Notes: a model not told the origin generated them from the sequence alone. Counted from the stretch's first letter, positions 1 to 15,497 are shown. The stretch is DNA of 15,497 nt from a virus (IMGVR_UViG_3300045988_168012), one strand, 5' to 3'. Program-made: numbers and translations.

Positions 1-99
1 GTTGATTTTGTAGAACAGGAAAATATTAAAAAGCAGCTTGCCGAACAAGAGGCGATTTTGGAGCAGCAGAAGAACACCGTTTCAGAGCTTCAAAAAAAC
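1..99. repeat. Terminal overlap, identical to 15399-15497 (circular or concatemeric assembly signature)
   Basis: Direct comparison: gttgattttgtagaacaggaaaatattaaaaagcagcttgcc...cagagcttcaaaaaaac occurs at both window ends. Unique length is 15,398 bp. Confidence 0.97.
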
Positions 100-2217
100 T
101 ATGACGATGCGGCGCGGTCGGTAGATGTTAATACATCCGCGCTGCAACGCTTGCAGAAGCGGCAGGGGATTCTTTCAAAGGTCGTATCCGGTCAAAGGAT
201 TTTCGGCGGTATCGGAGCCGTTGCCGGTCGTGCGAAAGATGCGATAGCCGAGAAAAGCAGCCAAATGAAAGACGGCTTTTCCGATATGTTCAAGAAAGGG
301 CTGAAAAGCGCCTTGCTATTCGGCGTCGGACTTCGTACCGTGACGGCTCTTGTAAGCAAGATGCGGCAATACGTCACGCAAGCGGTATCCGAGTTTGCGA
401 AGAGCGACAAAGAAACGCAGGGCAATATAAACGCGCTGAAATCTTCCCTCACGGGGCTGAAAGCCTCTTGGGGCGCGGCGTTCGCGCCTGTCCTTAACGC
501 GGTAGCGCCCATACTGCAAAGGCTCATTGCTATGCTCAATTCCGCAGCGCAAGCCGTAGCGCAGTTTATGGCGGTGCTTACCGGTCGCGGCTCATTCAAA
601 AAGGCGGTAGACAGCACCGGGCAGCTTTCGGACAATCTCGGCGGCGCAGCCGGGAACGCTAAGGAAGCAAAAAAGCAGCTCATGGGTATAGATACCCTTA
701 CCATTGCGCAGGACACGGACAGCGGCGGAGGTGGAGGCGGCGGAAGCGGCGCGACAGCGTTTGAAGATACAGCCGTAGACGCTGAAAGCCTCCCGGCGAA
801 GATCGCGGCAGCAATCAAGGCCGGGGAATGGGCGCAAGCTGCGTCCCTGCTTACCGGAAAGCTAAATGATATGATCGCTTCCGTGGATTGGGCGGGTATC
901 GGCTCTCAGCTCGGCGCGTATCTGGACGGTGCTTTGACGTTCCTTGCGGTAGCGCTGACAACGTTTGATTGGATGGGGCTTGCTGGGAATATTGCTACGT
1001 TCCTTAGCAACGTTATTTCCTCCGTAGATTGGCGGAATCTCGGCATTCTGTTTACGGCAAAATTCCGAATTATCCTACATGGTTTAGTCGGATTTATTCA
1101 GAATTTCGATTGGGGCGCGGCTATGTCGGCGCTGTCTCAATTCGCCGTTGGTCTGCTTAACGGGCTTACGGATGCAATACGTTCTATTGATTGGCTCATG
1201 CTCGGTCAGACGATCTATAACGGCGTAATAAGCGCTTTTCAAAACATAGACTTTGCCGGGATTGTGAAAGCAGTTACGGAACTTAGCGGCGCAATATGGA
1301 GCGCTACTATTGATCTTCTGCGCGGCATAATCGGCGAAGCGTGGCAATCTGTCGTTAATTGGTGGAATGAAAACGCTATACAGGACGGGGAATTTGTTTT
1401 TCTCGGTCTGCTGCAAGGTCTCTGGAACGGTGTAAAAAATATCGGTCTTTGGCTTTGGAATAACATCATTAAACCGTTTATCGACGGCTTTAAGGATGGT
1501 TTCGGTATTCATTCCCCGTCTACGGTTATGGCAGAGATCGGCGGTAACATCATGGCCGGATTGAAGCAGGGCGTTTTAAACAAGATCAATAACGTTATAC
1601 AGGCGTTCGGGCAGCTTAAACAGAGAATCACGGACAAGCTGCGCAGCCTTATTGACACGGCGCGAAATATCAATTGGGCGGACATTGGTACGAACATCGT
1701 TAACGGTATTATCGACGGTCTGAATCGTGCTTGGCAATGGCTTACAGGAGCAATCCAGCAGATGTGCAGAAACCTTTTACAGAGCGCAAAGAACATTCTC
1801 GGCATTCACTCCCCGTCTAAGGTTTTCCGGGAGCAGATCGGCGAGAACATCGGCGCGGGCATTGAAGAGGGCTTAGGCGATTCCGAGAGCGGATTAACGG
1901 CGCAGATGCGGTCTATCTCTTCCGGATTGATCGCGGAGGCAAACCGCTTTTCTATCGGGGAACAGCTCGCCAACATGGGCGGCTTTCGTATGCCCGCCGT
2001 TGCTATGGGCGGCGTAGTGCCGCCGAATGCGTTTTCCGGTTCTGGCGGTTATGGCATATCCCCGGAGCTTGAAAGCAAGCTGGACGCGCTTCTCGACCGT
2101 TTAACAGGCAATAAGCAGCCGATAGAGGTACACACGACGGTAGAGCTTGACCGGCGCAAAGTTGGCGAAAGCGTTTACACCTACACCGAAGAGAGAAACC
2201 GCGGACGCGGCAAATAA
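1..2217 (+). CDS. Tail tape measure protein, C-terminal 738 codons; the reading frame is open at base 1 and continues from 15150-15398 across the junction (about 821 aa in total)
   Basis: Frame 1 is open from base 1; the TTG at 58 in the ORF track is internal. Coiled-coil N-terminal part, hydrophobic A/L/G-rich segment, Gly7 linker, six periodic xxDW/DF motifs, and two copies of the GIHSPS(T/K)V...IG.NI.AG motif typical of Firmicutes siphophage tape measure proteins. Stop TAA at 2215-2217. Confidence 0.85.
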   Translation, partial: VDFVEQENIKKQLAEQEAILEQQKNTVSELQKNYDDAARSVDVNTSALQRLQKRQGILSKVVSGQRIFGGIGAVAGRAKDAIAEKSSQMKDGFSDMFKKGLKSALLFGVGLRTVTALVSKMRQYVTQAVSEFAKSDKETQGNINALKSSLTGLKASWGAAFAPVLNAVAPILQRLIAMLNSAAQAVAQFMAVLTGRGSFKKAVDSTGQLSDNLGGAAGNAKEAKKQLMGIDTLTIAQDTDSGGGGGGGSGATAFEDTAVDAESLPAKIAAAIKAGEWAQAASLLTGKLNDMIASVDWAGIGSQLGAYLDGALTFLAVALTTFDWMGLAGNIATFLSNVISSVDWRNLGILFTAKFRIILHGLVGFIQNFDWGAAMSALSQFAVGLLNGLTDAIRSIDWLMLGQTIYNGVISAFQNIDFAGIVKAVTELSGAIWSATIDLLRGIIGEAWQSVVNWWNENAIQDGEFVFLGLLQGLWNGVKNIGLWLWNNIIKPFIDGFKDGFGIHSPSTVMAEIGGNIMAGLKQGVLNKINNVIQAFGQLKQRITDKLRSLIDTARNINWADIGTNIVNGIIDGLNRAWQWLTGAIQQMCRNLLQSAKNILGIHSPSKVFREQIGENIGAGIEEGLGDSESGLTAQMRSISSGLIAEANRFSIGEQLANMGGFRMPAVAMGGVVPPNAFSGSGGYGISPELESKLDALLDRLTGNKQPIEVHTTVELDRRKVGESVYTYTEERNRGRGK

Positions 2218-2235
2218 TTTTCAGGAGGATAAAAA

Positions 2236-2661
2236 ATGAAAAATATCTCTGTATCGAACGTTCAGGAATACAACATCAACGGGAAAGTGGTTATCCGCTT
2301 TAACCCGATGGATACCGGCTTTGTAAAGCGGTTTCTTGCAGCGTGTGAAGAGCTGGCAAAGCGTCAGGAGGCTTTCGGCAAGGAAGCGGAGGAAGCCCCG
2401 GCGGATAACTTTTTCCCTGTCGCGGAAAAGTCGGATACCGATATGCGCGAGATCATCAACGGGCTTTTCGGCGAGGATGTATGCAAGCCCATTTTCGGGG
2501 AAATGCACCTTACGGCGCTTTCGGACGGTCTGCCGGTCTGGTGCAATCTCATGCTTGCGTTCATGGATGAGATCACGGAAACGGTCGAAGAGGTCAAGGG
2601 CAGCAAAGCAGAAGTCAATCCGAAGCTGCAAAAGTATCTCGCAAAATTCGACAAGAAATAA
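2236..2661 (+). CDS. Hypothetical acidic protein (141 aa) directly downstream of the tape measure gene; possibly tail-associated
   Basis: GGAGG at 2224-2228, 7 nt before the ATG. Clean ORF followed immediately by a hairpin terminator. I cannot assign a motif with certainty. Confidence 0.7.
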   Translation: MKNISVSNVQEYNINGKVVIRFNPMDTGFVKRFLAACEELAKRQEAFGKEAEEAPADNFFPVAEKSDTDMREIINGLFGEDVCKPIFGEMHLTALSDGLPVWCNLMLAFMDEITETVEEVKGSKAEVNPKLQKYLAKFDKK

Positions 2662-2688
2662 AAGCGGGGCATATTGCCCCGCTTCTTC
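2662..2688 (+). terminator. Hairpin terminator after the tape measure operon
   Basis: aagcggggca (2662-2671) pairs with tgccccgctt (2675-2684), followed by cttc. It sits directly after the stop codon at 2659-2661. The T tail is weak. Confidence 0.6.
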
Positions 2689-2690
2689 AC

Positions 2691-2730
2691 GCTTCGTAAC
2701 GCTCCGTAACGGTACGTAACGCTCCGTGGC
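2691..2730. repeat. Four tandem 10-bp units: gcttcgtaac / gctccgtaac / ggtacgtaac / gctccgtggc
   Basis: Read directly from the sequence. Exact 10-bp period with a shared CGTAAC core, in non-coding DNA. Confidence 0.8.
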
Positions 2731-2786
2731 TATGCGCTTGTTCGTTTCGCAGATGGATTTATAGCTTTGTACCAGAAAGTTTGTAT

Positions 2787-2844
2787 TAAAAATCCCCGGT
2801 ATCAAACGATACCGGGGGGGACGCTGGATGGAATCGAAACCCGC
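2787..2844 (-). ncRNA. Candidate small RNA B (about 57 nt): promoter plus intrinsic terminator with no ORF
   Basis: Minus-strand promoter TTGCAT-17-TATACT (2851-2879). Downstream is the hairpin ccccggtatc/gataccgggg (2794-2817) and then AUUUUUA on the minus strand. There is no start codon with an RBS in between. The transcript contains a C7 run. Confidence 0.4.
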
Positions 2845-2850
2845 ACAAAT

Positions 2851-2879
2851 AGTATACCGCACTTTCCGGGAAAATGCAA
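2851..2879 (-). promoter_or_regulatory. Sigma-70-type promoter (minus strand), TTGCAT-17 nt-TATACT
   Basis: Plus-strand agtata at 2851-2856 and atgcaa at 2874-2879 with an exact 17-nt spacer. Paralogous to the promoter at 2983-3011. Confidence 0.5.
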
Positions 2880-2884
2880 TAGAT

Positions 2885-2976
2885 AAAAAACCCCTCTGGC
2901 ATCCTAAGACACCAGAGGGTAAAAAGAAAGGAGGTACCCTGCCGATCTCGCTTTCCTGACGGTCGATTACTACACA
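2885..2976 (-). ncRNA. Candidate small RNA A (about 92 nt): promoter plus intrinsic terminator with no ORF
   Basis: Minus-strand promoter TTGCAT-17-TATAAT (2983-3011). The hairpin ccctctgg/ccagaggg (2892-2919) is followed by U6 (plus-strand A6 at 2885-2890). No plausible ORF. The transcript contains the CU-rich stretch ACCUCCUUUCUUUUU, which is anti-Shine-Dalgarno-like. Confidence 0.45.
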
Positions 2977-2982
2977 ACGCAT

Positions 2983-3011
2983 ATTATACCGCATTCCGTG
3001 TGATAATGCAA
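2983..3011 (-). promoter_or_regulatory. Sigma-70-type promoter (minus strand), TTGCAT-17 nt-TATAAT
   Basis: Plus-strand attata at 2983-2988 and atgcaa at 3006-3011 with an exact 17-nt spacer. Confidence 0.55.
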
Positions 3012-3054
3012 GAGTTATTTATACGCTTTTTCTTTTTCTGTATAATTAAACTAT

Positions 3055-3102
3055 TGCAAGCAATTGATAGCAATTGAAAGCATCTGTATACAATTGCTTG
3101 CA
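3055..3102. repeat. 12-bp inverted repeat tgcaagcaattg / caattgcttgca, with three CAATTG palindromes
   Basis: Inverted-repeat arms at 3055-3066 and 3091-3102. CAATTG at 3061, 3071 and 3091. Non-coding DNA between the sRNA-A promoter and the 3' end of the TA operon. Confidence 0.7.
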
Positions 3103-3169
3103 GATTGCAGCAAAAGGGAAACCGGCGCAGAGCCGAAGCCCTACGCCGGTATTTACGCTCAATCTTCTG

Positions 3170-3364
3170 TTAACCCCATACGGAAGCATGGGAAACGGTT
3201 TCCCCGCTATCGTATTCCTTGCGAGCTGCGGAGATCGCCGCTATATCGTCGGGCGTAGCAACATCATCCGAAACAAAGCGCCGGACGATCTCAAGCAAAA
3301 GCGCCTGTTCTGCCTCTGGCAGATAGTCTATCATGTGGTTTAACTGATCTCTTACCGGTGACAT
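3170..3364 (-). CDS. Putative antitoxin partner (64 aa) encoded downstream of the RelE/ParE toxin
   Basis: GGGGGTG RBS. The ATG lies 3 nt after the toxin stop, so the two form an operon. The protein is small and acidic with a C-terminal ...TPDDIAAISAARKEYDSGETVSH segment like short antitoxin or accessory proteins. No HTH is visible. Confidence 0.5.
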   Translation of the reverse strand: MSPVRDQLNHMIDYLPEAEQALLLEIVRRFVSDDVATPDDIAAISAARKEYDSGETVSHASVWG

Positions 3365-3367
3365 TCT

Positions 3368-3610
3368 TTACACCCCCTTGTAAACTTCACCACGCGGAGC
3401 AATCTTTTCTATCAACAGCACACCGGACGCAGGGAAAGAAAACAGGATGCGCCAATCTCCGACACGCAGCCGGTATGAGCCTGGATACCCTTGTAACGGC
3501 TTTATATCGCCCTCCGGTATCTTCTCTATTGCCGTTCGTATACGCTGCTTTGTCGGCCTGTCCATCCCGGATATAGCTTTTACGGCTCGCTTGGAGTATT
3601 GAATATCCAT
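3368..3610 (-). CDS. RelE/ParE-family type II toxin (80 aa)
   Basis: The motif ...PLQGYPGSYRLRVGDWRILFSF....VLLIEKIAPRGEVY matches the classic RelE/StbE/ParE pattern (YRLRVGDYRIIF...I.HR.E.Y). A consensus promoter lies directly upstream. Confidence 0.8.
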   Translation of the reverse strand: MDIQYSKRAVKAISGMDRPTKQRIRTAIEKIPEGDIKPLQGYPGSYRLRVGDWRILFSFPASGVLLIEKIAPRGEVYKGV

Positions 3611-3636
3611 TTGTATTCCCCCATCCGTGTAAGCCT

Positions 3637-3665
3637 ATTATATGCGGAACGTAAGCTGATTTCAA
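3637..3665 (-). promoter_or_regulatory. Sigma-70-type promoter of the toxin operon, TTGAAA-17 nt-TATAAT
   Basis: Plus-strand attata at 3637-3642 and tttcaa at 3660-3665 with a 17-nt spacer, about 27 nt upstream of the toxin ATG. Confidence 0.65.
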
Positions 3666-3690
3666 TAACTTTTTATGAACGGGGCGCAGA

Positions 3691-3740
3691 GCTGCGATTG
3701 GTAGCGATTCGCTGCGATTCGTACCCATTCGCAGCCGTTG
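3691..3740. repeat. Five 10-bp-phased degenerate units: gctgcgattg / gtagcgattc / gctgcgattc / gtacccattc / gcagccgttg
   Basis: Read directly from the sequence. Strict 10-bp register in a 305-bp non-coding gap. Confidence 0.75.
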
Positions 3741-3780
3741 GGGGGCGTCCGGGGGCGTTCGGGGGCGTCCGGGGGCGAAA
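3741..3780. repeat. Four tandem 10-bp units: gggggcgtcc / gggggcgttc / gggggcgtcc / gggggcgaaa
   Basis: Read directly from the sequence and contiguous with the previous array. Followed by three AAGCCAA copies (3779, 3788, 3808) and A6/T6 tracts. Confidence 0.85.
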
Positions 3781-3970
3781 GCCAAAAAAGCCAACGGTTT
3801 TTTAAGAAAGCCAAATAACCCACGGCTTTACGATAATGTATCATTAACGCACGATAACGTTTGCAGAAATCCCCAAAATGTAAGCAGAAAACGAAAAAAT
3901 GTTTGCATTTATTCCCTTTGTGCTTGCAGATTCGGAGGAAATGCAGACGGAATTATTATAGGAGGACATT

Positions 3971-4399
3971 ATGAAGCTGACAGTAAACATTAAGACCCTG
4001 CCCGCTAAGACGTTCAGAAAGGCGGTAAAGTACGCTGAAACGGTCGTTGCGGAACAGGCTTTGAAAGATACAGACCCATTTGTTCCGGCGCTTACCGGCA
4101 CATTCTCAAAGCTCGCTCACACGGTCGGGAATGAGATCATATACACCGGAGATCAGGCGCAATATCTCTATTACGGCAAAGTTATGGTAGATCAGGACAA
4201 CCGGCACGCCGTTTTCTATGAGGGGAAAGGATGGAGACACCGCAAGGGCGCGATACTCCACGCCACGGACAAGAATCTTGTTTTCACAACGGATATGCAT
4301 CCGCAAGCGCAATCCCACTGGATGGAAGCATCGGAGGCAAAGAACGGCGATAAATGGGCAGAGGTCGCGGAAAGAGCCATTGCAAAGGCGATAAAATAA
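3971..4399 (+). CDS. Phage minor capsid / head-tail connector-like protein (142 aa)
   Basis: AGGAGG RBS at 3959-3964. The pattern DTDPFVPALTGTF...IIYTGDQAQYLYYG...H.QAQSHWMEAS resembles the 'minor capsid protein' family of Firmicutes siphophages (D..PYVP.DTG.L ... YA.Y.YYG ... W.E). This is from memory, not a search. Confidence 0.55.
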   Translation: MKLTVNIKTLPAKTFRKAVKYAETVVAEQALKDTDPFVPALTGTFSKLAHTVGNEIIYTGDQAQYLYYGKVMVDQDNRHAVFYEGKGWRHRKGAILHATDKNLVFTTDMHPQAQSHWMEASEAKNGDKWAEVAERAIAKAIK

Positions 4400-4452
4400 C
4401 CTTGAAAGTGCTTTTCCCGCTTATGGGGAACGGCGGCAGATCGGGGAATAAG

Positions 4453-4525
4453 AAAGAGCGGGAATTAAATCCCGCTCTTTTCTTCATATTAGAGAATGTT
4501 CCCCGGCTGATAAGCCGGTTTCTTT
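4453..4525 (+). terminator. Two hairpin terminators between convergent genes; the first can act in both directions
   Basis: aaagagcggga (4453-4463) pairs with tcccgctcttt (4470-4480), then tcttc. ccggct (4503-4508) pairs with agccgg (4513-4518), then tttcttt. Confidence 0.65.
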
Positions 4526-4547
4526 CTCCCACAAGCGGGGGGAGAAG

Positions 4548-5009
4548 TCACGAACCGACGAAAGAATGAAAAGCCGTTTCATACGTTCCGGCATCTTCCG
4601 GCGTTACTTCATACGGAATGCGGAGAATAGCATAATCAGACTTGTACATATACTGATTCAGACCGAACGCGCCCAAATCTGCGCCGGTAAACTGATTCAG
4701 ATAATCATACCGGGATTTACAATCCGCTTTGTTGGCGAACGTTTCAACCGTTGCCGTGTTGATCGTCTCAATACCGGGAATTTCAAAATCTGCTTTTCCC
4801 GTGTATTCATTCGGACGGCCTAATTTCTGGTTTGGGTCGGTTTCTGCGGTGTATGCCGTTATATCCCCGACAGAACACCCGGCAGAGGAAAGACCGTTTA
4901 TAATATCCTCCGGCGTGTAGTCTTTCGGGTCTGGCCCGGACGAACCGCCGCAAGCGCACAGCACAAGGACAAGAGAGAGAGCAAGGAAAAACGAGATCGC
5001 TTTTTTCAT
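4548..5009 (-). CDS. Secreted lipoprotein (153 aa), moron-like
   Basis: N-terminus MKKAISFFLALSLVLVLCAC|GGSSG has a signal peptide plus a lipobox-like L-C-A-C. GGAGG RBS, its own promoter and terminator. One of only three protein-coding genes on the minus strand. Confidence 0.8.
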   Translation of the reverse strand: MKKAISFFLALSLVLVLCACGGSSGPDPKDYTPEDIINGLSSAGCSVGDITAYTAETDPNQKLGRPNEYTGKADFEIPGIETINTATVETFANKADCKSRYDYLNQFTGADLGAFGLNQYMYKSDYAILRIPYEVTPEDAGTYETAFHSFVGS

Positions 5010-5052
5010 TTTCTTTCAGCCTCCATTTTTTATTATGCCGGGAGATAAAAAC

Positions 5053-5081
5053 ATTATATGCAGGAGCGCAGAGAAAAGCAA
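5053..5081 (-). promoter_or_regulatory. Sigma-70-type promoter of the lipoprotein gene, TTGCTT-17 nt-TATAAT
   Basis: Plus-strand attata at 5053-5058 and aagcaa at 5076-5081 with a 17-nt spacer. Confidence 0.55.
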
Positions 5082-5109
5082 GCGGGGATTTTCCCCCCGA
5101 ATTTTTCTA

Positions 5110-5155
5110 TTGACTTTTGAGTGTGCATAAAGTATAATTCATGTGTGCTCAAAAG
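5110..5155 (+). promoter_or_regulatory. Consensus promoter TTGACT-17 nt-TATAAT with embedded operator-like repeats
   Basis: TTGACT at 5110-5115 and TATAAT at 5133-5138. An 8-bp inverted repeat cttttgag / ctcaaaag (5114-5121 and 5148-5155) and direct GTGTGC repeats (5121, 5143) bracket the -10. Confidence 0.7.
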
Positions 5156-5167
5156 TGAGGTGATGAC

Positions 5168-5341
5168 ATGAGCCCACGCACCGGACGGCCAAAGACGGAG
5201 AACCCTATAAATATCCGAACATCTGTTAGGCTGGACGCGGAGACAGACAGGAAACTGAATGACTACTGCGAAAAGCACGGCATAACAAAAGGTGAAGCGA
5301 TAAGAAAAGGCGTTCACTTGCTTCTGGCCGAAGAAAAATAA
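5168..5341 (+). CDS. Ribbon-helix-helix (CopG/Arc-like) DNA-binding protein (57 aa); not in the ORF track
   Basis: GAGGTG RBS. The sequence MSPRTGRPKTENPINIRTSVRLDAETDRKLNDYCEKHGITKGEAIRKGVHLLL fits the RHH pattern (GRPK, a beta-strand 'vRld', then two helices). Confidence 0.65.
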   Translation: MSPRTGRPKTENPINIRTSVRLDAETDRKLNDYCEKHGITKGEAIRKGVHLLLAEEK

Positions 5342-5397
5342 AATCTCCCGCGCTGGCAATCTTGGCGGAGCGACAGCACGGGAGACCCCCCAGACCC

Positions 5398-5437
5398 TTG
5401 CGGGAGTGGTGTAAATATTCTACTACACCTCCCGCAA
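5398..5437 (+). other. Strong 14-bp hairpin with one bulge in the RHH-Rha intergenic region
   Basis: ttgcgggag-t-ggtgta (5398-5413) pairs with tacacctcccgcaa (5424-5437). There is no adjacent U-tract, so it is not a clear intrinsic terminator. Confidence 0.6.
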
Positions 5438-5474
5438 AAGGTCAATCGTGACTTTTTGTAAGGAGGTTTTTTTC

Positions 5475-6236
5475 ATGCCCAAAACAATACAGCTTGTTTT
5501 CTGGAAGTCGCAAGCGCCGACGCAAGAGCCGTACACCACAAGCGAGGTTATAGCCGAAGCCGCCGGGATGAATCGCCGCACGGTTAACCGTCTTATCCAG
5601 ACCCACAAGGCAGACCTTGAAGAGTTCGGAAGGGTGCGATTTGAAATCACACCCTTAAAGACAAGGGGCGGCGTTCAGAGCGTCACGGTGTACCACTTGA
5701 ACGAACAGCAAGCAACGCTTTTAATGACCTACGCACGGAACACGGAGACGGTACGGGCGTTCAAGAAAGAGCTTGTCAAGCAATTCTATGCTATGCGGTC
5801 GCTTCTATTGGAGCGCAACAGCCCGATATGGCAGGATACGCGAGCGCTTACAAAGGCGGTACGCAAGCAGGAGACGGACGCGATACGCGAGCTTGTAGAG
5901 TACGCCACGGGGCAAGGCTCAAAGCACGCGGTACGGTATTATACGTCGATCTCCCGGATAGCGAACAAGGCGGCGGGGATCACGGACAGAGACCGCGCCC
6001 ACGTCGAAGAGCTGACGGCGTTAATGCTCATTGAGCGGGTGATAGCGGAAGAGATACGCGCCGGGATAGCGGCGGGGAAGCCGTACAAGGAGATATACAC
6101 CGCCATACAGCAGCGTCTATTGACGTTCGGAGGGATCACCGGCACGTCTACGCTTTGTTTAACGCCACACAACGCGCCACACGGCGCTTTTGCGGTCGGG
6201 GAATGCACAGACATTACCGAGACCGCAGAACGCTAA
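5475..6236 (+). CDS. Rha-family phage regulatory protein (253 aa)
   Basis: AGGAGG RBS at 5461-5466. The N-terminal stretch TTSEVIAEAAGMNRRTVNRLIQTHKADLEEFGRVRFEI...VYHLNEQQATLLMTY...AFKKELVKQFYAM matches the Phage_pRha pattern. The ORF-track start at 5448 is less likely. Confidence 0.75.
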   Translation: MPKTIQLVFWKSQAPTQEPYTTSEVIAEAAGMNRRTVNRLIQTHKADLEEFGRVRFEITPLKTRGGVQSVTVYHLNEQQATLLMTYARNTETVRAFKKELVKQFYAMRSLLLERNSPIWQDTRALTKAVRKQETDAIRELVEYATGQGSKHAVRYYTSISRIANKAAGITDRDRAHVEELTALMLIERVIAEEIRAGIAAGKPYKEIYTAIQQRLLTFGGITGTSTLCLTPHNAPHGAFAVGECTDITETAER

Positions 6237-6253
6237 TAAAGGGGCGTGAGAAC

Positions 6254-6791: not shown

Positions 6792-6807
6792 AAGGGAGTT
6801 TACGAAA

Positions 6808-7791: not shown

Positions 7792-7805
7792 GGAAAGGTT
7801 GATAC

Positions 7806-7994: not shown

Positions 7995-8025
7995 CACAGC
8001 GCAAAAGAAAAAGGAGGCTCACCCA

Positions 8026-9408: not shown

Positions 9409-9477
9409 AACATGATATAATACTAAGCAATCGAATGAAAAAACGTGCATGGAAGAAATTCCCGCACGAATGAGCCT

Positions 9478-9536
9478 ATGAGCCTATTACGGTCGCTTGG
9501 TAACAGAGCGAACGCGATAGGCTCATTTTATTTTTT
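9478..9536 (+). terminator. Long-stem intrinsic terminator after int
   Basis: atgagcctat (9478-9487) pairs with ataggctcat (9517-9526), with an inner tcgct/agcga stem, followed by tttatttttt. An extra direct copy of atgagcct sits at 9470. Confidence 0.7.
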
Positions 9537-9560
9537 CGGACTTTGAAAGGAGAATACAGC

Positions 9561-9755
9561 ATGGCGAAACTTAGAACGCTTCCGAAAGCATACGACTACT
9601 TCAAGGAGAAAGACCCGGATTCCGCGCTTACGAAAAACTATTTCCGCACGCTGGTAAAGACCGGCGCTATTCCGTCGGTACGGCTCGGGAAAAACTTTCT
9701 GATTGACGTTGAAACGCTCGATCAGCACATAGCGAAAGCCTTTAGCGGCCTCTGA
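9561..9755 (+). CDS. xis: Excisionase-like / MerR-type HTH DNA-binding protein (64 aa)
   Basis: AAGGAGA RBS. LTKNYFRTLVKTGAIPSVRLGKNFLIDVETLDQHI resembles the excisionase-family HTH plus wing (G.lP..r.G.r..i). Adjacent to int. Confidence 0.55.
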   Translation: MAKLRTLPKAYDYFKEKDPDSALTKNYFRTLVKTGAIPSVRLGKNFLIDVETLDQHIAKAFSGL

Positions 9756-9786
9756 AAAGGGGAAACGCGCCACGCGAGGGGGTACT

Positions 9787-9945
9787 ATGTCCAAATCGAG
9801 CCGGAAACGGTATCAGGCGAAGCGCCGGGAATATAAGCAGATCGAGGAACAGATAGACCGGCGCAACGCCTACGGACTACCAGACCCGACGCCGAAAGCG
9901 GCGGTTGACAAGATCATACAAAAAGAACGGAGGATAAAAACATGA
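9787..9945 (+). CDS. Small highly basic protein (52 aa); not in the ORF track
   Basis: GAGGGGG RBS 6 nt upstream. MSKSSRKRYQAKRREYKQIEEQIDRRN... Its end overlaps a further 20-codon ORF (9942-10004). Confidence 0.4.
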   Translation: MSKSSRKRYQAKRREYKQIEEQIDRRNAYGLPDPTPKAAVDKIIQKERRIKT

Positions 9946-10027
9946 ACGACAAACAGAGAATGGAGAAACTCGCCGATATTGCAGTATTGGAGCGTAAACG
10001 CTGATGGACAAAACGAAGGAGATCACC

Positions 10028-10324
10028 ATGAAAGAATTTGCGGAGATGGATAAGCGTCCGCAGTATTTCAACTTTTTTCTTGAATCGTGCGAGACGTTGG
10101 CAATGCTCGACAACGAGGGCGCGGGAAAGGTAATTCACGCAATCGCGGATTACTTCATTGACGGCGATACGCCGGAGGACTTGCCGACGTTCACGAAGAG
10201 CGAGCGCCGGGCGTACAACCGTATCAAGCGCGGATGTGATGATAGCTGCGCTCTATGGTATGCGAAAGTTACCGGAGGAAAAGAGGGGGCAAGAAAGCGC
10301 TGGGGGGGAAAAACCGAAGAATAA
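10028..10324 (+). CDS. DUF6291-like phage protein (98 aa; alternative start 10004)
   Basis: AAGGAG RBS at 10016-10021. YFNFFLESCETLAMLDNEGAGKVIHAIADYFIDGDTPE resembles the DUF6291 / replisome-organizer N-terminal-like pattern (recalled). Confidence 0.5.
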   Translation: MKEFAEMDKRPQYFNFFLESCETLAMLDNEGAGKVIHAIADYFIDGDTPEDLPTFTKSERRAYNRIKRGCDDSCALWYAKVTGGKEGARKRWGGKTEE

Positions 10325-10326
10325 AA

Positions 10327-10352
10327 ATAGGTCTCCTATAGGTCTCCTATAG
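10327..10352. repeat. 11-bp tandem repeat ataggtctcct x2.4, each unit containing the ATAGG-N3-CCTAT palindrome
   Basis: Read directly from the sequence, immediately after the stop codon at 10322-10324. Confidence 0.85.
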
Positions 10353-10376
10353 CACTCCCACCATTTTGCTAATAGC

Positions 10377-10418
10377 AACTCATAACTCATAACTCGTAAC
10401 TCATAACACATAACAGTA
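10377..10418. repeat. Six tandem 7-bp units: AACTCAT x2, AACTCGT, AACTCAT, AACACAT, AACAGTA
   Basis: Read directly from the sequence. Followed by the hairpins gcatccc/gggatgc (10421-10437) and caaacgc/gcgtttg (10453-10469). Confidence 0.85.
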
Positions 10419-10582
10419 AGCATCCCTACGGGATGCCATTAAAGGGAAGCACAAACGCGGGGCGTTTGCACTTCTGCGCTTGTGTTATGTATGCATTTTC
10501 CCCGATGTTGTTTACAGCTTCCCGGATAATGCATACATTTCCCGGCTTAATGGTAACATCCCGCACGAAAGGAACGGACAGA

Positions 10583-11026
10583 ATGAATCTTAGAATCTTC
10601 CGCATGACAGCGAAAAAGGCGTATGACAGCATGGAGGACACTGTAAACCGGTATTCTCTGGAACAGTACATAGCAATTTTTGAGCATTTCTTTTCCCGGT
10701 ACGCCGAGAAGCGCGGAGAAGATCACCCGCCGGTAGGATGCGGAAACATCCGGCGTATCATGGAGCGGATGCCGTACACGGGCGCAAAGGATGAAAGCAT
10801 CGGCGGGCGGGATATGTTCGACTACACGGCGGATATGTACCCGGCAATGATAGATCAGTATTTCCGAACGCGCTTTTTCCCCGGATGTGATTACCGCATA
10901 TTTCACTTTATGTGCGGCAACGTTCGGGAGCTGCGTTTATATGAAATCTTGCTCGGGCGCGAAACTGCGGAGGCGTGCGCGGACGGCATGGACAACATCA
11001 AGAACACGAAGGAGGGCAAAGCATGA
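10583..11026 (+). CDS. Hypothetical protein (147 aa)
   Basis: AAAGGAA RBS. The internal ATG is preferred because the first 50 codons of the track ORF cover the repeat and hairpin region. No motif recognised. Confidence 0.6.
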   Translation: MNLRIFRMTAKKAYDSMEDTVNRYSLEQYIAIFEHFFSRYAEKRGEDHPPVGCGNIRRIMERMPYTGAKDESIGGRDMFDYTADMYPAMIDQYFRTRFFPGCDYRIFHFMCGNVRELRLYEILLGRETAEACADGMDNIKNTKEGKA

Positions 11027-11184
11027 CAGAGCAGAAAAGACGATGCAGACAGGTGAAAGAAAACCTTGCAGAGAAAACGAAAGAGCTTTTGATGGACGGC
11101 ATAGACGCCGTACACAAGCTACAGCCCGTTGTTGAGGGCATGAAAGAGCAGATCAAGGAGGCGCGGGACGATGCCGACGATTGA
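11023..11184 (+). CDS. Hypothetical small coiled-coil protein (53 aa)
   Basis: AAGGAGGG RBS. ATGA overlap with the upstream stop. Confidence 0.5.
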   Translation: MTEQKRRCRQVKENLAEKTKELLMDGIDAVHKLQPVVEGMKEQIKEARDDADD

Positions 11185-11386
11185 AGAAGATGCGCGTATG
11201 TTCTGCCCTCTCCGTGACGGGAGAAACGTCGCGGCGGACTGCATCGGGAAAGAATGCGCGTATTTTGGGGAGTATGTTTGTATGCGCGTCTGTGTCTCCC
11301 CCGCCGTCGGTAAGCTCTGCCCGATGCCTTACCACGGGGTATGCAATGGAAACTGCGGATTCAACAAGAGAGGGGGGAAAGACTGA
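11171..11386 (+). CDS. Cysteine-rich small protein (71 aa, 9 Cys)
   Basis: GGAGG about 11 nt upstream. Cys spacing CPL...C...C...C..C...C...C...C suggests a metal-binding or disulfide-rich fold. Overlaps its neighbours. Confidence 0.5.
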   Translation: MPTIEEDARMFCPLRDGRNVAADCIGKECAYFGEYVCMRVCVSPAVGKLCPMPYHGVCNGNCGFNKRGGKD

Positions 11387-11577
11387 TGCAGACATACAAA
11401 GCGGCGCAGCTGGTTCTTGAAGCCGTGGACGGTCTGAACGCCGGACAGATTCAAAACATTATCGGAATGCTGCACGAGTACAAGCAGAAAGCCGCTGTAG
11501 TGCGTTCTATGGTGGCGGGCGTATCAAATGACGCAGAACTTGAAAAAATGATTCTGACGCACTTTAGGGGCGTTTAA
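11386..11577 (+). CDS. Hypothetical small protein (63 aa)
   Basis: ATGA-type overlap (TGATG) with the upstream gene. G-rich RBS agagggggga. Confidence 0.5.
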   Translation: MQTYKAAQLVLEAVDGLNAGQIQNIIGMLHEYKQKAAVVRSMVAGVSNDAELEKMILTHFRGV

Positions 11578-11591
11578 CAAGGAGGTAAAAC

Positions 11592-12038
11592 ATGAGCGAA
11601 ATTAGAGAAGCGATTACACAGCGGCTTACGGGCGGAAACTTTAACGCGCTGGATGCGGTGAGCCGCGAGGACTTCCCGGACGATGAAAGCTATCTCCGGG
11701 CGGCTACAAAGATTCAGCTTGAGAGAAGCACGCCGGAGTATCAGCGGGCGTATGCTTCCCTTGCGGCTGAATACAGCAAGCGGCAGGAAGAGAAGCAGCG
11801 AGCGGCGAACGAGGCGCGATACAAGGAGCTTTCCCGCACGGTGCAGCTTGATTCCGTCGAGCTTGGCAACGTAGAGAAGAAAGCGCGGGAAGCGGCACAG
11901 AGAGACCTTGCAGCAAAAAGAATCGATCTTTCCGGCGTGGGCGCGGCTATTGAGAAGTACGCGGCGCAGTTTGAGAAAGAGGAACGGGAAAGCAAGATCG
12001 GGCGCGTTATGCTCAATGAGCTTATCCGGGGCAGATAA
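11592..12038 (+). CDS. Hypothetical charged coiled-coil protein (148 aa)
   Basis: AAGGAGG RBS at 11579-11585. Followed by a terminator. Confidence 0.65.
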   Translation: MSEIREAITQRLTGGNFNALDAVSREDFPDDESYLRAATKIQLERSTPEYQRAYASLAAEYSKRQEEKQRAANEARYKELSRTVQLDSVELGNVEKKAREAAQRDLAAKRIDLSGVGAAIEKYAAQFEKEERESKIGRVMLNELIRGR

Positions 12039-12044
12039 GGAAAT

Positions 12045-12075
12045 AGCATCCCGTAATACTGCGGGGTGCTTTCTT
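12045..12075 (+). terminator. Hairpin terminator
   Basis: agcatcccg (12045-12053) pairs with cggggtgct (12062-12070), with one G-U pair, then ttctt. Confidence 0.55.
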
Positions 12076-12179
12076 ATGCCCGGATTTATGAAAACAAATG
12101 CTTTTGAGGGGGTGAGGTTATAAACCGGATACGGGACGAGGACATATTAGAGGCGCTTCTTACAACGCCAACACAAAAG

Positions 12180-12479
12180 ATGGCGGCTAAAAAGCTCGGA
12201 TGTACGCCGGTAACGATTTCGCACCGAGTAAGCAACCCGGAGTTTCGTAAGAAGTACGACGAAGCCAGAGAAGGCTTGATAATATCAACGCGAGATATGC
12301 TTCAACGCTCAACGTGTAACGCAGTATCTACGATGGTAGCAATCATGCAGGACGAAAGAGCATCACAGCAAACGCGGCTCAATGCAGCAGAGGCCATATT
12401 AAAGCACGGCGCACGGTATACGGAGATCGGGGACGTTTTGGAGCGCATAAAGGCGCTTGAGGCGAGCAATGAGGAATGA
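12180..12479 (+). CDS. terS: Terminase small subunit (99 aa from the first ATG; the true N-terminus may lie upstream)
   Basis: HTH AAKKLGCTPVTISHRV, then ...RLNAAEAILKHGARYTE, which is typical of terS (AAE.LLKH.G). Its end overlaps the terL start. Confidence 0.65.
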   Translation: MAAKKLGCTPVTISHRVSNPEFRKKYDEAREGLIISTRDMLQRSTCNAVSTMVAIMQDERASQQTRLNAAEAILKHGARYTEIGDVLERIKALEASNEE

Positions 12480-13854
12480 CATAGAAAAGCGTCTTGCAGC
12501 TCTCGAAGCATCAAAGAAGATCGCCGACGAGCTGAAAGAGCGGGCGGCGCAGCGGGACATAACGCAGCATATAGCCCCGGTATACGTCCCTCTCCATGAG
12601 GATATACAGGCGCAGCGGCACAGCATATACAATCTTCCGGGCGGTCGCGGTTCCGGTAAATCCTCCGTCGCCTCTCTGGAAATCGTGAACGGCATAATGA
12701 ACGACAGCACGGCGAGCGGGATTTGCTTCCGGCGTGTCGGCGCTACGCTGCGGGAAAGCGTCTTTGCACAGATCGAATGGGCGATAGATACGCTTGATGC
12801 GTCGGATTTATGGACGCTTACCACAAGCCCCATGAGAGCGACGTACAAGCCCACGGGACAGGCGATTATCTTTCGCGGTCTGGATGAGGCTACAAAGCTA
12901 AAATCAATCAGAGCGCCGGGGAAAACCTATTTCCGGTTTATCTGGTATGAAGAGGCTTGCGAGCTTCCGGGAGAAAGAACGCTGCGCAATGTTACGCAAT
13001 CGGTACAGCGCGGCGGAAAGGTGTTTACCATCTTCCGCACGTTTAACCCGCCGATAAGCCTTAACAATTGGATGAATCGGCTTGTAAACGTGCCGGATGA
13101 TCGAGCCTTGACCGTGCGCACAGACTATACAATGATGCCCCCGGAATGGCTCGGCGAGGCGTTCATAGAGGAAGCCGAACACCTGAAAGCCGTTAACCTT
13201 GACGCATACCGACATGAATACATGGGCGAGCCGATAGGCGCGGGCGGCGAGGTATTCCCCAATGTCACAGTACGGACGATCACGGATGAAGAGATCGCCG
13301 GAATGGGATACTTCTATGACGGTGTTGATTTTGGCTTTACGATAGACCCCGCTTGTTATATCCGCGTGAGCTATAACCGAAAGACGGAAGAGCTTTATTT
13401 GCTGGATGAGATATACAAGCGGCGCTTGCGAAATTCAGAGCTTGCGGAACTGATGCGGGGAAAGTATAAAGCATGGTCTAATGTTATGCCGTTTACTGAT
13501 GGCGCAATGGTGGCTTATTGCGACAGCGCAGAGCCGAAAAGCATAGTTGATCTACGCGCAAACGGCATAGATGCGAGAGAGACATACAAGCGCCCGGACG
13601 CCGTGCGATACCGTATAAATTGGCTCCAACACCGGAAGATCATCATTGACCCGGCACGCACTCCGAACGCCTATAAAGAGTTTACGGAGTACGAATACAC
13701 GACGGACAAGGACGGCAATATTACCGGAGAACTGCCCGACGCGAACAACCACGCCATAGACGCCGTAGCGTACAGCCTTACGCCGGTTATATGGAATTAC
13801 GCGGGGGAAGCCGGAATAGACAACAGGCCGACACCGGCGAGACCGCTTGAATGA
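12469..13854 (+). CDS. terL: Terminase large subunit, PBSX/Terminase_3-type (461 aa)
   Basis: Walker A LPGGRGSGKSS. Walker B FIWYEEA. Nuclease acidic residues in VDFGFTIDPA, YCDSAEPKSI and NNHAIDAVAYS. ATG at 12469 with GAGG 6 nt upstream. Confidence 0.93.
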   Translation: MRNDIEKRLAALEASKKIADELKERAAQRDITQHIAPVYVPLHEDIQAQRHSIYNLPGGRGSGKSSVASLEIVNGIMNDSTASGICFRRVGATLRESVFAQIEWAIDTLDASDLWTLTTSPMRATYKPTGQAIIFRGLDEATKLKSIRAPGKTYFRFIWYEEACELPGERTLRNVTQSVQRGGKVFTIFRTFNPPISLNNWMNRLVNVPDDRALTVRTDYTMMPPEWLGEAFIEEAEHLKAVNLDAYRHEYMGEPIGAGGEVFPNVTVRTITDEEIAGMGYFYDGVDFGFTIDPACYIRVSYNRKTEELYLLDEIYKRRLRNSELAELMRGKYKAWSNVMPFTDGAMVAYCDSAEPKSIVDLRANGIDARETYKRPDAVRYRINWLQHRKIIIDPARTPNAYKEFTEYEYTTDKDGNITGELPDANNHAIDAVAYSLTPVIWNYAGEAGIDNRPTPARPLE

Positions 13855-13869
13855 TTAGGGGGTGAAACA

Positions 13870-14115
13870 ATGTGCTATGTAACGATCAAGTGCCATAACT
13901 GCGGGGCGGCGTCAACGCTCTATGACGGTATGGCGGCAAGGTGTCCCCATTGCGGGGCAACCATCCCGGAGAAAGCCGCCGGGAAGCTCGAAAACCTTTT
14001 AGGGTGTGCGCGGGAGATCGACAAGGATTTACGCAGCGCAGCCGAACAGGGCGCAGAGCTTTTCACGGTGGAAGTCAGAAACTTTCATGTACCGGCGCAC
14101 AAATCGAAATGGTGA
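13870..14115 (+). CDS. Zinc-ribbon protein (81 aa)
   Basis: GGGGGTG RBS. CHNCG...CPHCG are two CxxC knuckles. Confidence 0.6.
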   Translation: MCYVTIKCHNCGAASTLYDGMAARCPHCGATIPEKAAGKLENLLGCAREIDKDLRSAAEQGAELFTVEVRNFHVPAHKSKW

Positions 14116-14129
14116 AAGGATATTGACCC

Positions 14130-14561
14130 ATGAGCAAGCCCCGCTTTCGCTGGTGGGGTTACATGAAATCCGCAATTAGAGCATACCCGGAGCTTTGCGA
14201 CAAGCTCCAAACGATGAAGAATCAGAGCATAACCCCGAATTACAGTTTTTCAGCCGGAGGCGGCGGAGCGTCCAGAACGGCAGAGGCGGCGGCGCTGCGC
14301 GAGCTGACGGGCATTGAAGCCGTAGAGTACGACGCGGTACGGCGAGCCATAGAGAACACCGGAAAGCTCAAAAACGGAGCGGAACGGCAAGCCCTTATTG
14401 ACATGGTTTTCTTTAAGCAAAGCCACTCATTAGAGGGCGCGGCTATGGCGCTTTTCGTATCGTACCAGACGGCCAAACGCTGGCACAATGATTTTATTCT
14501 GGAAGCCGGTAAATGCTACGGCTTGTTAGACGGTAATTTCGGAGGTATGCGCAATGAATGA
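14130..14561 (+). CDS. RinA-like / sigma-70 region-4-like late transcriptional activator (143 aa)
   Basis: The pattern W..Y.K.AIRAYPEL...L...(Gly-rich)...TAEAAALREL...AVRRAIENT..L.NG..R..LIDMVFF.QSHSLEGAAMALFVSYQTAKRWHNDFI matches my recollection of RinA-family activators (C-terminal HTH). Confidence 0.5.
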   Translation: MSKPRFRWWGYMKSAIRAYPELCDKLQTMKNQSITPNYSFSAGGGGASRTAEAAALRELTGIEAVEYDAVRRAIENTGKLKNGAERQALIDMVFFKQSHSLEGAAMALFVSYQTAKRWHNDFILEAGKCYGLLDGNFGGMRNE

Positions 14562-14991
14562 ATTTATGGAAGCCCTCTGCAAAGACGATCTTTCCAAACT
14601 CCGGTATTACGAACGGCGCATAGCCGAGATACCGGACGAGATCGCAGAGGAACAGGCACAGTTAACGTCTATTAAAAGCTCAACGACCGGCTCGACACCG
14701 GTACAGGGCGGCGGGAACAAGCGCGAGGAATGGCTTGTATCAGCTCTCGACCGGATAGACCGGCTAAAGGCAGATTTAAGCTATTTCGAGGGTAAAGTAC
14801 GGCTTACATACCGGGCGCTTGATATGCTCGACCCGGACGATAAGAGAATCCTTATTGTGTTTTATGTCGATAAGCTGAAACGCGGTGCGGATGTCCTTAT
14901 GGATGAGCTTGATATAGACGTTCGTACCGTATGGCGCAGACGTGCGGGCGCATTAGAGGTCTACTGTACCGCACGGTATGCAAGCCGATAA
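14554..14991 (+). CDS. ArpU/DUF1492-like sigma-region-4-type regulator (145 aa)
   Basis: GGAGG RBS at 14541-14545. The tail ...TYRALDMLDPDDKRILIVFYVD......LMDELDIDVRTVWRRRAGALEVY has a region-4-like HTH with a preceding coiled coil, as in phage ArpU-family late regulators. Confidence 0.5.
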   Translation: MNEFMEALCKDDLSKLRYYERRIAEIPDEIAEEQAQLTSIKSSTTGSTPVQGGGNKREEWLVSALDRIDRLKADLSYFEGKVRLTYRALDMLDPDDKRILIVFYVDKLKRGADVLMDELDIDVRTVWRRRAGALEVYCTARYASR

Positions 14992-15014
14992 AGCAGAATG
15001 GAGAGTGAAAAAAC

Positions 15015-15119
15015 ATGGTTACATTTCCGGCATTTTGGGGCGGCGTTATCGCAACGCTCGCTTGTGAATTTGCGGTGCTGCTTGCGTACTCTATCGTGTA
15101 TGCATTCCGGCACAAATAA
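15015..15119 (+). CDS. 34-aa hydrophobic membrane peptide directly upstream of the tape measure gene; not in the ORF track
   Basis: MVTFPAFWGGVIATLACEFAVLLAYSIVYAFRHK has a single TM helix. GGAGAG lies about 10 nt upstream. Confidence 0.4.
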   Translation: MVTFPAFWGGVIATLACEFAVLLAYSIVYAFRHK

Positions 15120-15149
15120 GCCCTTACGGGTGAAAGGTGGTGAAACAGA

Positions 15150-15497
15150 TTGAAAGATATTCGGTTTAAGGTCGGCATAGACGATAGCAAGGCGGCGCGG
15201 GAGCTTGCCGCGCTGAATCGCGCTATTGATAATCTGAAAAGCAAGATCAACGATGCGGCGCAAGCGAAAATAAACCTTGCCCCGCAGCTCGACGAGGCAA
15301 AGCAGAAAGCCGAAGAGACGGCGGCGAGCGTGGCAAAGCTGAAAGAACAGCTTGCAGCGAGCGAGGCAAAGACCAACAGACAGGGGAAAATACGCGCCGT
15401 TGATTTTGTAGAACAGGAAAATATTAAAAAGCAGCTTGCCGAACAAGAGGCGATTTTGGAGCAGCAGAAGAACACCGTTTCAGAGCTTCAAAAAAAC
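15150..15497 (+). CDS. Tail tape measure protein, N-terminal part (TTG start); continues into 100-2217 through the terminal overlap
   Basis: In-frame stop TGA at 15141-15143. The only start is TTG at 15150, with GGTGGTG 7 nt upstream. Translation MKDIRFKVGIDDSKAARELAALNRAIDNLKSKINDAAQAKINLAPQLDEAKQKAEE... is coiled coil. The frame is continuous with frame 1 at base 1. Confidence 0.8.
   Translation, partial: MKDIRFKVGIDDSKAARELAALNRAIDNLKSKINDAAQAKINLAPQLDEAKQKAEETAASVAKLKEQLAASEAKTNRQGKIRAVDFVEQENIKKQLAEQEAILEQQKNTVSELQKN
15399..15497. repeat. Terminal overlap, identical to 1-99
   Basis: See feature 1-99. Confidence 0.97.

Follow-up and report, generated by a model that had tools for sequence, protein, structure and literature searches.

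A probable helper-embedded phage satellite from human-gut Oscillospiraceae that carries its own terminase and tape measure genes

Helper-embedded phage-inducible chromosomal islands (HE-PICIs) lie in, and are co-oriented with, the late genes of lambdoid prophages, and have been reported from Enterobacteriaceae only (Tommasini, Mageeney & Williams 2023, PMC10111431). They occupy 14 sites, their integrase subclades follow these sites, and their attP carries no replacement sequence; off-target events, tandems, capture of late genes and a doubled motif around the attP core have also been described, and intervening elements with regulated gene integrity were cited as a concept in the same study (PMC10111431). 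Here, we analysed a viral stretch of DNA, IMGVR_UViG_3300045988_168012 (15,497 nucleotides, referred to below as the window), for which an earlier note based on the sequence alone had proposed a satellite that has its own terminase and tape measure protein (TMP) and exploits a helper phage. Our results favor this proposal and provide a concrete helper family, but they also reveal the key feature that the note had missed, namely the seat of the element inside a late gene of the helper prophage. We conclude, with a probability of roughly 80%, that the window represents a helper-embedded satellite from an uncultured human-gut Oscillospiraceae bacterium in its excised, circular state (attP form).

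Integration in the tail-completion gene of a helper prophage

The homology of the window to longer contigs ends between positions 7606 and 7713. In a contig of 71.9 kb (L221; L-numbers are the labels of the viral (IMG/VR) and metagenome (ENA/JGI) contigs compared with the window), an integrated element 94-98% identical to the window at the nucleotide level is bounded by an attL that opens at window position 7638 and an attR that closes at window position 7651, the helper tail-completion gene is shortened to 62 amino acids (aa), and the major tail gene follows attR. L218 (63.7 kb) and L220 (104 kb), which come from two samples, have the same junctions as L221 and are 98.6% identical to the window over positions 1-7651. 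The target gene, located between the Minor_capsid_2 and major tail genes, matches phrog_3266 ("tail completion", E = 5e-12), and it is found with an intact attB in helper loci, for example at 15974-16423 of L128. Thus attL, attR and the empty attB have all been found for the window-type site. The start of the attL homology and the end of the attR homology place the attP crossover core CATTATCAGTACAA at 7638-7651. The core variants among the elements, TATCAGTACAA, TATCAGTTCAA and TATCAATTCAA, vary where the helper codons TAT CAR TWC AAR vary, and the 16-nt core of L020 has an exact match in 11 helper loci. An attR pattern tried as a query, TTGACANTATCAGTWCAARATNATYTAYCG, had no match in viral or metagenome contigs, the actual attR sites reading ...TATCAATTCAA|ACTTATTTAYCG; searches of IMG/VR with P'-arm patterns returned only contigs already found.

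Insertion cuts the tail-completion gene to 62-79 aa, and attP supplies no replacement for the lost part. The window lineage has been seen integrated in this gene only. Every insertion has the orientation of the helper late operon, with the integrase gene (int) as the first called gene after attL (gene tables of L216-L224); in the integrated copies, the helper late genes and the satellite int, excisionase gene (xis), terL and remaining genes all lie on the same strand. These junctions show, at the level of sequence, that the window integrase recombines the 14-bp core (7638-7651) and a point midway along the tail-completion gene of a temperate siphophage of ~41 kb.

This siphophage family was represented by more than 80 contigs in a portal search that started from the flank of L014 and L015. 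Among the helper loci from IMG/VR, one of the 80 fetched carries the element, and the capsid gene is intact (403 aa) in the others. The helper map of L128 runs from terS and terL through the genes for portal, MuF, scaffold, capsid protein, head-tail adaptor (phrog_541) and a DUF6751 protein to those for Minor_capsid_2, tail completion, major tail, phrog_11299, a Gp15-like protein, a 717-aa TMP, Dit and Tal. In L128, whose locus is otherwise intact, the capsid gene (13499-14724) is read in two overlapping frames of 343 and 132 aa, and L097 has a single 403-aa open reading frame (ORF); the split may be a sequencing error or a pseudogene. The composite contigs, 62-191 kb in length, indicate that the helper is a chromosomal prophage. 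The nearest cultured relative of the helper portal is that of Acutalibacter phage Fontainebleau (46%), and the threonyl-tRNA synthetase (ThrRS) encoded beside an off-target copy of the satellite is ~80% identical to proteins of Ca. Limivicinus and of Oscillospiraceae metagenome-assembled genomes. The element has 0.37 times the length of the helper genome.

The window itself ends in an exact direct repeat of 99 bp, bases 15399-15497 being a copy of 1-99 (circular overlap), which gives a circle of 15,398 bp of unique sequence. Many relatives with 92-99% nucleotide identity occur in the IMG/VR and ENA/JGI metagenomes. The exact integrase sequence is present on 4 contigs, all of the 10-20-kb class, and the three that were read (15,453, 15,470 and 10,349 bp) derive from three separate samples. 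Colinearity with window 7200-8030 identifies the 15-17-kb contigs L016, L178, L182, L185, L187 and L191 as circular attP forms, and related attP-form contigs of this size were recovered from many samples. The recurrence of the exact integrase on several contigs and of related attP-form contigs in many samples shows that the circle is no isolated assembly product. The 81-aa Zn-ribbon protein encoded beside terL is indexed as an exact sequence in 1136 blocks of a public collection; grouped by the longest carrier contig, 388 blocks fall at 10-20 kb and 75 at >20 kb. Whole-circle megablast against 50,697 phage records gave no match, and an Rfam scan of the window gave no family at the gathering thresholds. 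The window contains no tRNA, which rules out tRNA-linked integration.

Sister sites, off-target copies and deletion derivatives

Sister elements use three further sites, in the middle of the major capsid gene, at the start of the DUF6751 gene (head-closure position) and at the start codon of the major tail gene, and for each of them both junctions were seen on one contig. These three sites fall, together with the tail-completion gene, within 3 kb of head-tail genes of one helper family. Integrase identity is 98-100% among elements of one site group and 50-78% from one group to another, and integrase subclades track the sites.

For the capsid site, L014 and L015 (two samples) carry a head module 5' of int, comprising the portal, MuF-like and scaffold genes and a capsid gene truncated at 208 aa. 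L097 is 99.7% identical to the L014 flank up to one point, which defines the attB as ...AATCCC ATCTTCAAAACCGA TATGCAGG... with a 14-bp core. The site lies at codon ~202 (core ATCTTCAAAACCGA), with attB in L097, attL in L014, L015 and L217, and attR in L217, a 191-kb scaffold that holds both capsid-gene junctions; the inserted capsid gene is left as pieces of 211 and 199 aa. The DUF6751-gene start site, in the gene after the head-tail adaptor, is occupied in L183 and L216, and the start-codon site of the major tail gene in L018, L189, L222 and L224. Bases 1-29 of L018 and those from 15675 onwards map to overlapping positions of the intact helper L110. At both start-codon sites, the insertion parts the ORF from its ribosome-binding site. 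The att sets are precise, with attP, attL, attR and attB sharing cores of 11-14 bp. For two more attP types (L185 and L193), no target was detected in the helper loci.

Two off-target copies, at ~3650-18000 of L215 and ~3770-18180 of L219 (contigs of 143 and 215 kb), occupy chromosomal pseudo-sites with the cores GGCTGAATA and GATGAAATA. Their integrases are of the major-tail type and the pseudo-sites resemble the major-tail attB; one copy lies beside HsdR/Fic and the other beside ThrRS. In addition, deletion derivatives that have lost window 8153-12822, from int to the N-terminal part of terL, are present in helpers from several samples (L218 and L220, both at 8439-19187, and L223 at 9107-19465). 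In L218 and L220 the tail-completion gene is left permanently split, and in L223 the head-closure-position gene is affected. A contig of ~26 kb (L019, L174, L179 and L193; IMGVR 3300045988_160083, ERZ791729.330) joins a complete window-type element near window 5330-5387 to a second, much more divergent satellite with a 50%-identical integrase and a different attP core. A concatemer or tandem artefact was rejected, as two different satellites are present; the two may stand in tandem or may have been joined in assembly via a shared 57-bp stretch.

Gene content of the window and its family

Profile searches with Pfam, PHROGs and NCBIfam agree with the gene list of the earlier note, which had seen int/xis, terS, terL, a TMP gene and late activators with no capsid, portal, tail-tube or lysis gene. 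The tyrosine integrase (460 aa, 8026-9408, E = 5e-32; features lie on the plus strand unless stated otherwise) points inward from the att site and is followed by an excisionase-family helix-turn-helix protein (9543-9755; TIGR01764, E = 7e-6, below the cut-off). The packaging genes are terS (12180-12479), with a weak PHROG match (E = 5e-5) supported by its position, and terL of the SPP1-G2P type (12457-13854; Terminase_3, E = 5e-32, and Terminase_3C). The match of the terL nuclease domain to the structure of SPP1 G2P (PDB 2wbn, E = 2e-24) indicates a headful-type enzyme. An exact look-up of the 465-aa terL product (TTG start at 12457) found no record, a negative that is uninformative since gene callers start the gene at 12469 (461 aa). 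The gene for the Zn-ribbon protein (phrog_15404, 81 aa, 13870-14115), which is always beside terL, and those for two RinA-like late regulators (14130-14561 and 14554-14991; phrog_36, E = 4e-6 and 4e-11) complete this part. The RinA-like proteins match TIGR01636 (RinA) at E = 6e-4, below the cut-off, and have no Pfam sigma-70 match.

The TMP gene crosses the circle junction, from a TTG start at 15150 to 15497 and from 1 to a stop at 2217. The junction-crossing open frame has 823 codons, 821 aa counted from TTG 15150. Its product matches 11 PHROG tape-measure families (best E = 1e-30) and no Pfam family; it is a long helical protein with TMP profiles, encoded beside a chaperone-type gene and homologous to the TMP of a related phage. 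The neighboring gene (2236-2661) encodes a 141-aa phrog_11299 protein, 47% identical to the helper copy, which is a candidate tail assembly chaperone by synteny, the helper homologue lying between the major tail and TMP genes. The 142-aa Minor_capsid_2 protein (PF11114, E = 2e-15, 3971-4399) belongs to the neck module.

Capsid, portal, protease, tail-tube, baseplate, lysis and replication families were absent from the window in the Pfam, PHROGs and NCBIfam searches. The longest unassigned ORF encodes 197 aa, a length that could not accommodate an HK97-fold capsid protein or a portal. The small-gene block (10004-12038) comprises a DUF6291 gene (10004-10324) and ORFs at 10583-11026, 11171-11386, 11341-11577 and 11592-12038. 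The 147-aa protein encoded at 10583-11026, the single member of the block searched in a large protein database, has homologues in this element family alone; it has no PDB sequence match, and its AlphaFold model is all-helical with a predicted local distance difference test (pLDDT) score of 56, too poor for a fold search. A hidden capsid, portal or replication fold, which the note had suggested looking for among the unassigned ORFs, was not found, the structure model of one unknown ORF being of low confidence. The suggestion in the note that the 142-aa protein remodels capsid size is implausible, as this protein is a 61%-identical copy of a helper neck-module gene. The model of the protein (pLDDT 77.5) has no significant fold match in the PDB; among viral models it matches its own family, with a best E of 2e-10 and three matches at E ≤ 0.001, and has weaker matches to HK97-gp10 and neck proteins (E about 0.06).

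The satellite late genes are 31-61% identical to their helper counterparts overall, with 43% for terL, 47-52% for the two RinA-like proteins against the single helper copy, and 61% for Minor_capsid_2. The TMP resembles its 717-aa helper counterpart at both ends, with 41% identity over the N-terminal 340 aa and 75% over the C-terminal 77 aa, and is unrelated to it in the center. The terL product is closer to those of small elements (53-57%) than to those of helpers (43%). Contigs with neck homologues of ≥79% identity do not exceed ~17.5 kb (satellite-sized elements or fragments), and the 55-60%-identical ones listed with long contigs are on contigs of ~39-44 kb, the helper size. This split of identity by contig class indicates that the satellite neck protein forms a distinct satellite-borne subclade rather than a recent capture.

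The constant gene set of the family comprises int, xis, three small genes, terS, terL, the Zn-ribbon gene and both RinA-like genes. Of the family's genes, terS, terL, the Zn-ribbon gene and the two RinA-like genes are the most conserved, with 96-100% identity at the aa level across elements that differ in integrase and cargo. Two terS alleles, about 100% versus 64-67% identical (aa), occur among relatives on a terL background of 96-98% identity, which suggests that an allele switch changes packaging-site specificity. Many relatives carry a 389-aa tail-fibre-like gene and an 86-aa gene instead of the TMP-plus-chaperone module (8156-9590 of L015; also L016, L182, L186, L187, L215-L217, L219 and L221), so two kinds of tail or entry parts can replace one another in the late zone. 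L001 (4994-14033) and L024 (395-13332), distant relatives with 54-57%-identical terL products, are small chromosomal islands next to flagellar genes and glmS, respectively, and carry replication genes (DnaD/DnaC-like or primase-like). In both, terS and terL are followed by a TMP-like gene of 680-780 aa, with the Zn-ribbon protein gene between in L001, and this shared arrangement indicates that the pairing of terminase and TMP is old in the lineage. L024 also has a possible portal-sized ORF.

Between these modules, a stretch of ~500 nt with no convincing ORF and four strong hairpins (2662-3169, non-coding) follows the phrog_11299 gene. It has no Rfam match; terminators, an origin or pac are conceivable. 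Positions 2688-2776 hold a module breakpoint, and the backbone from 2776 on is conserved in all relatives. Minus-strand cargo identified with Pfam and PHROGs (3170-3844) comprises a RelE/ParE-type toxin gene (3368-3610) and small ORFs at 3170-3364 and 3662-3844, and a second minus-strand cargo gene (4548-5009) encodes a 153-aa lipoprotein with a signal peptide plus Cys, which may, as speculation, be an exclusion factor. PADLOC found no defence system in the cargo. The regulatory zone (5168-7519) contains a small ribbon-helix-helix-like ORF (5168-5341), a Rha gene (5475-6236, Pfam/PHROGs match), ORFs at 6254-6586 and 6564-6791, an XRE gene (6775-7203, weak match) and two paralogous small ORFs (7200-7379 and 7376-7519).

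The attP consists of a P arm (7509-7637) that runs into TTGACA (7634-7639), the core, whose first two bases TTGACA overlaps, and a P' arm (7652-8025) with a -10-like hexamer. Direct repeats lie on both sides of the core, TGTGCGCC..GTGCGCC at 7520-7538 and 7773-7791 and TTTWTCAATGGTTTTC at 7571-7586 and 7713-7728, and are candidate arm-type integrase sites. Window 7634-7662 reads as a sigma-70-like promoter split by the crossover, with TTGACA in the P arm, the core as a 16-18-nt spacer and the -10-like hexamer in P'. The split site is found in all 8 attP types (TATAAT in three) and is absent from attL in L221. By its position, this promoter-like site would exist on the excised circle only, where it would face a Cys-rich ORF and int. 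The Cys-rich ORF (7806-7994, 62 aa, CxxC...CxxC) has a weak Lar-like match (E = 0.007); its region aligns at ~78% nucleotide identity in relatives with different integrases, and gene callers annotated the ORF in a few copies, for example at 8827-9018 of L218 and L220.

Competing readings, proposed life cycle and known satellites

It could be argued that the element is no parasite but, much like the skin element in sigK, an insertion that regulates gene integrity, keeping the head-tail operon of the prophage broken to the benefit of the host, or timing its late genes, with the packaging genes as leftovers. The disruption of an essential helper gene with no replacement, the integrase-less derivatives fixed in helpers from several samples (L218, L220 and L223) and a cargo with a toxin-antitoxin pair and a lipoprotein would fit. 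However, the packaging and regulator genes are the most conserved ones, which points to selection on packaging, free circles of 15-17 kb are far commoner than composites (388 versus 75 blocks), and the integrase has radiated onto several helper sites; we therefore regard this explanation as improbable. There is a slim chance that the element is an ordinary Gram-positive PICI-like chromosomal island whose prophage copies are accidental secondary insertions, as the chromosomal copies L215 and L219 and the distant islands L001 and L024 might suggest. But L215 and L219 occupy pseudo-sites like the major-tail attB, and their integrases share 98-100% identity with those of the major-tail group. Each of the four site groups characterised targets a helper late gene, and the window lineage was seen integrated in the tail-completion gene only.

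The earlier note had stated that the circle would be a deletion or a chimeric assembly if integrated homologues always sat in ordinary ~40-kb prophages with head and tail genes between terL and the TMP gene. The homologues do literally sit inside such prophages, but as separate units bounded by int, for which att junctions and empty sites are known; between terL and the TMP gene of the integrated elements there are no head or tail genes, and the helper has its own terL and TMP genes. A deletion derivative of the ~41-kb phage, or a chimeric or mis-circularised assembly, would explain the homology of the late genes to helper genes and the prophage location, but it is very unlikely in view of the 15-17-kb circle in many independent assemblies and the precise att sets, and because late genes only 31-61% identical to those of the helper are not the product of a recent deletion and terL groups with small elements. 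An autonomous temperate phage of very small size with unrecognised structural genes receives hardly any credence from us. The int/xis genes, regulators, terminase, late activators and some head-tail genes would fit, but the element has about 15.4 kb, its unassigned ORFs are all ≤197 aa, three hidden Markov model libraries gave no match to capsid, portal, tube, baseplate or lysis families, and the largest unknown protein was modelled as all-helical with low confidence.

Several points weigh against the helper-embedded satellite that we prefer. Particle formation, induction and dependence on the helper are inferred from sequence. No capsid-size-redirecting gene was recognised in the window, and neither was a replication gene, yet a headful terminase normally needs concatemers as its packaging substrate. 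The absence of the TMP module from many relatives makes it cargo of the variable late zone rather than a defining part, and the integrase-less derivatives and the off-target copies reveal dead ends among the copies. Chimeric joins can occur in metagenome scaffolds, although every type of junction was found in two to four samples. Taken singly, the promoter-like match is weak (23 sites versus 15 expected in the window), and its conservation could equally reflect an integrase-binding sequence.

On the reading as a helper-embedded satellite, and by the reasoning put forward for HE-PICIs (PMC10111431), the following life cycle may be envisaged. The embedded satellite would be copied passively as part of the helper, which fits its lack of a recognisable replication gene. 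Helper late transcription would read into int and xis and thereby switch the satellite on; in L221, the stretches from the helper neck genes to int and from the right end of the satellite to the major tail gene contain no plus-strand terminator-like site. Excision would restore the helper tail-completion gene and assemble the promoter-like site across attP. The satellite TerS and TerL (headful, SPP1-like) would then package satellite DNA into helper-made procapsids, the RinA-like proteins would drive late promoters, and the satellite TMP, chaperone-like protein and neck protein would be built into helper-made tails. In siphophages, the ends of the TMP contact the chaperone or terminator and the tip complex, and a TMP with helper-compatible ends around a foreign center could template tails made of helper subunits. 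The satellite would need helper lysogens, since attB is present only in those cells. Some exclusion proteins of Gram-positive siphophages target the TMP, and we guess that the TMP or tail-fibre-like cargo may let satellite particles enter helper lysogens despite helper-encoded exclusion. Taken together, it is conceivable, though rather doubtful as a whole, that the helper-embedded lifestyle arose independently in Bacillota, with a widespread human-gut lineage whose integrase has radiated onto at least four (possibly six or more) head-tail sites of one Oscillospiraceae prophage family, excision by late read-through, a circle-only promoter for re-integration and swappable entry modules that bypass exclusion.

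The presence of the same configuration in gut Clostridia would mark it as a general, probably convergent strategy of phage parasitism instead of a peculiarity of one clade. As the element is common in the gut, virome pipelines likely mis-file its circles as small phages, and composites as phages of ~55 kb in which the terminase and tape measure genes are doubled. To our knowledge, no other satellite type has terL and a TMP gene but no head genes, and this combination raises the testable question of why a satellite would replace the tail ruler.

Like Staphylococcus aureus pathogenicity islands (SaPIs) and other Gram-positive PICIs, the element is about 15 kb long (~1/3 of the helper genome), carries int/xis, regulators, a small-gene block and a packaging module with terS, and would depend on helper virion proteins. 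SaPIs, however, use chromosomal sites, have pri-rep genes with an origin and usually genes for capsid-size redirection, and carry terS only, with no terL and no tail genes, whereas the window has its att site in a prophage late gene, no replication family and a full terL. With capsid-forming PICIs (cf-PICIs) it shares its own terS and terL and a probable need of a helper for the remaining virion parts, but cf-PICIs have a full head module (capsid, portal, protease and connectors) and borrow tails, whereas the window has a TMP gene and other tail and neck parts and no head genes. In the skin element in sigK, a site-specific insertion splits a gene that regulated excision restores; here, in contrast, it is a gene of another mobile element, the prophage, that is split, by an insertion equipped with packaging genes of its own.

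The statement of the earlier note that the element matches neither class thus holds for classical PICIs and cf-PICIs, but HE-PICIs (PMC10111431) fit. The element lies in a helper late gene, is co-oriented with it, has int and xis upstream with int pointing inward, disrupts its target and lacks the virion structural genes that autonomy would require. As in HE-PICIs, a tyrosine integrase and an excisionase stand at the upstream end, attP does not replace the interrupted gene, one integrase clade has subclades that track late-gene sites within a few kb, capsid and tail-tube genes are among the targets, and off-target chromosomal copies, tandems, a variable late zone of helper-like genes and repeats flanking the attP core occur. 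The four-zone layout of HE-PICIs (Integration, Bro, Replication with a primase, and Late) with AlpA was not found, as no primase, single-stranded DNA-binding protein or DUF5906 is present and the excisionase fits the TIGR01764 family rather than AlpA. The window has no recognised primase or replication zone, and its Rha-type regulator lies at the far end, not beside int. Its own terS and terL also set it apart from the type HE-PICI 11capE, which has no terS and presumably relies on the cos machinery of its helper, and it adds a TMP gene, a chaperone-like gene and a neck gene. The family belongs to Bacillota (Oscillospiraceae), with an SPP1-like headful siphophage rather than a lambdoid cos phage as helper, and the best phage-database matches of the window integrase, which are to Bacillota phages or gut contigs, reach at most 33% identity. 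An origin independent of HE-PICIs is probable, the two being set side by side by configuration. In the literature searched, the term "helper-embedded" occurs in six items (five distinct works, the original paper being listed along with its preprint), none of which deals with Gram-positive bacteria; this is therefore the first Gram-positive helper-embedded satellite in the searchable literature, a known configuration in a different phylum, with a different type of helper and a different gene set.

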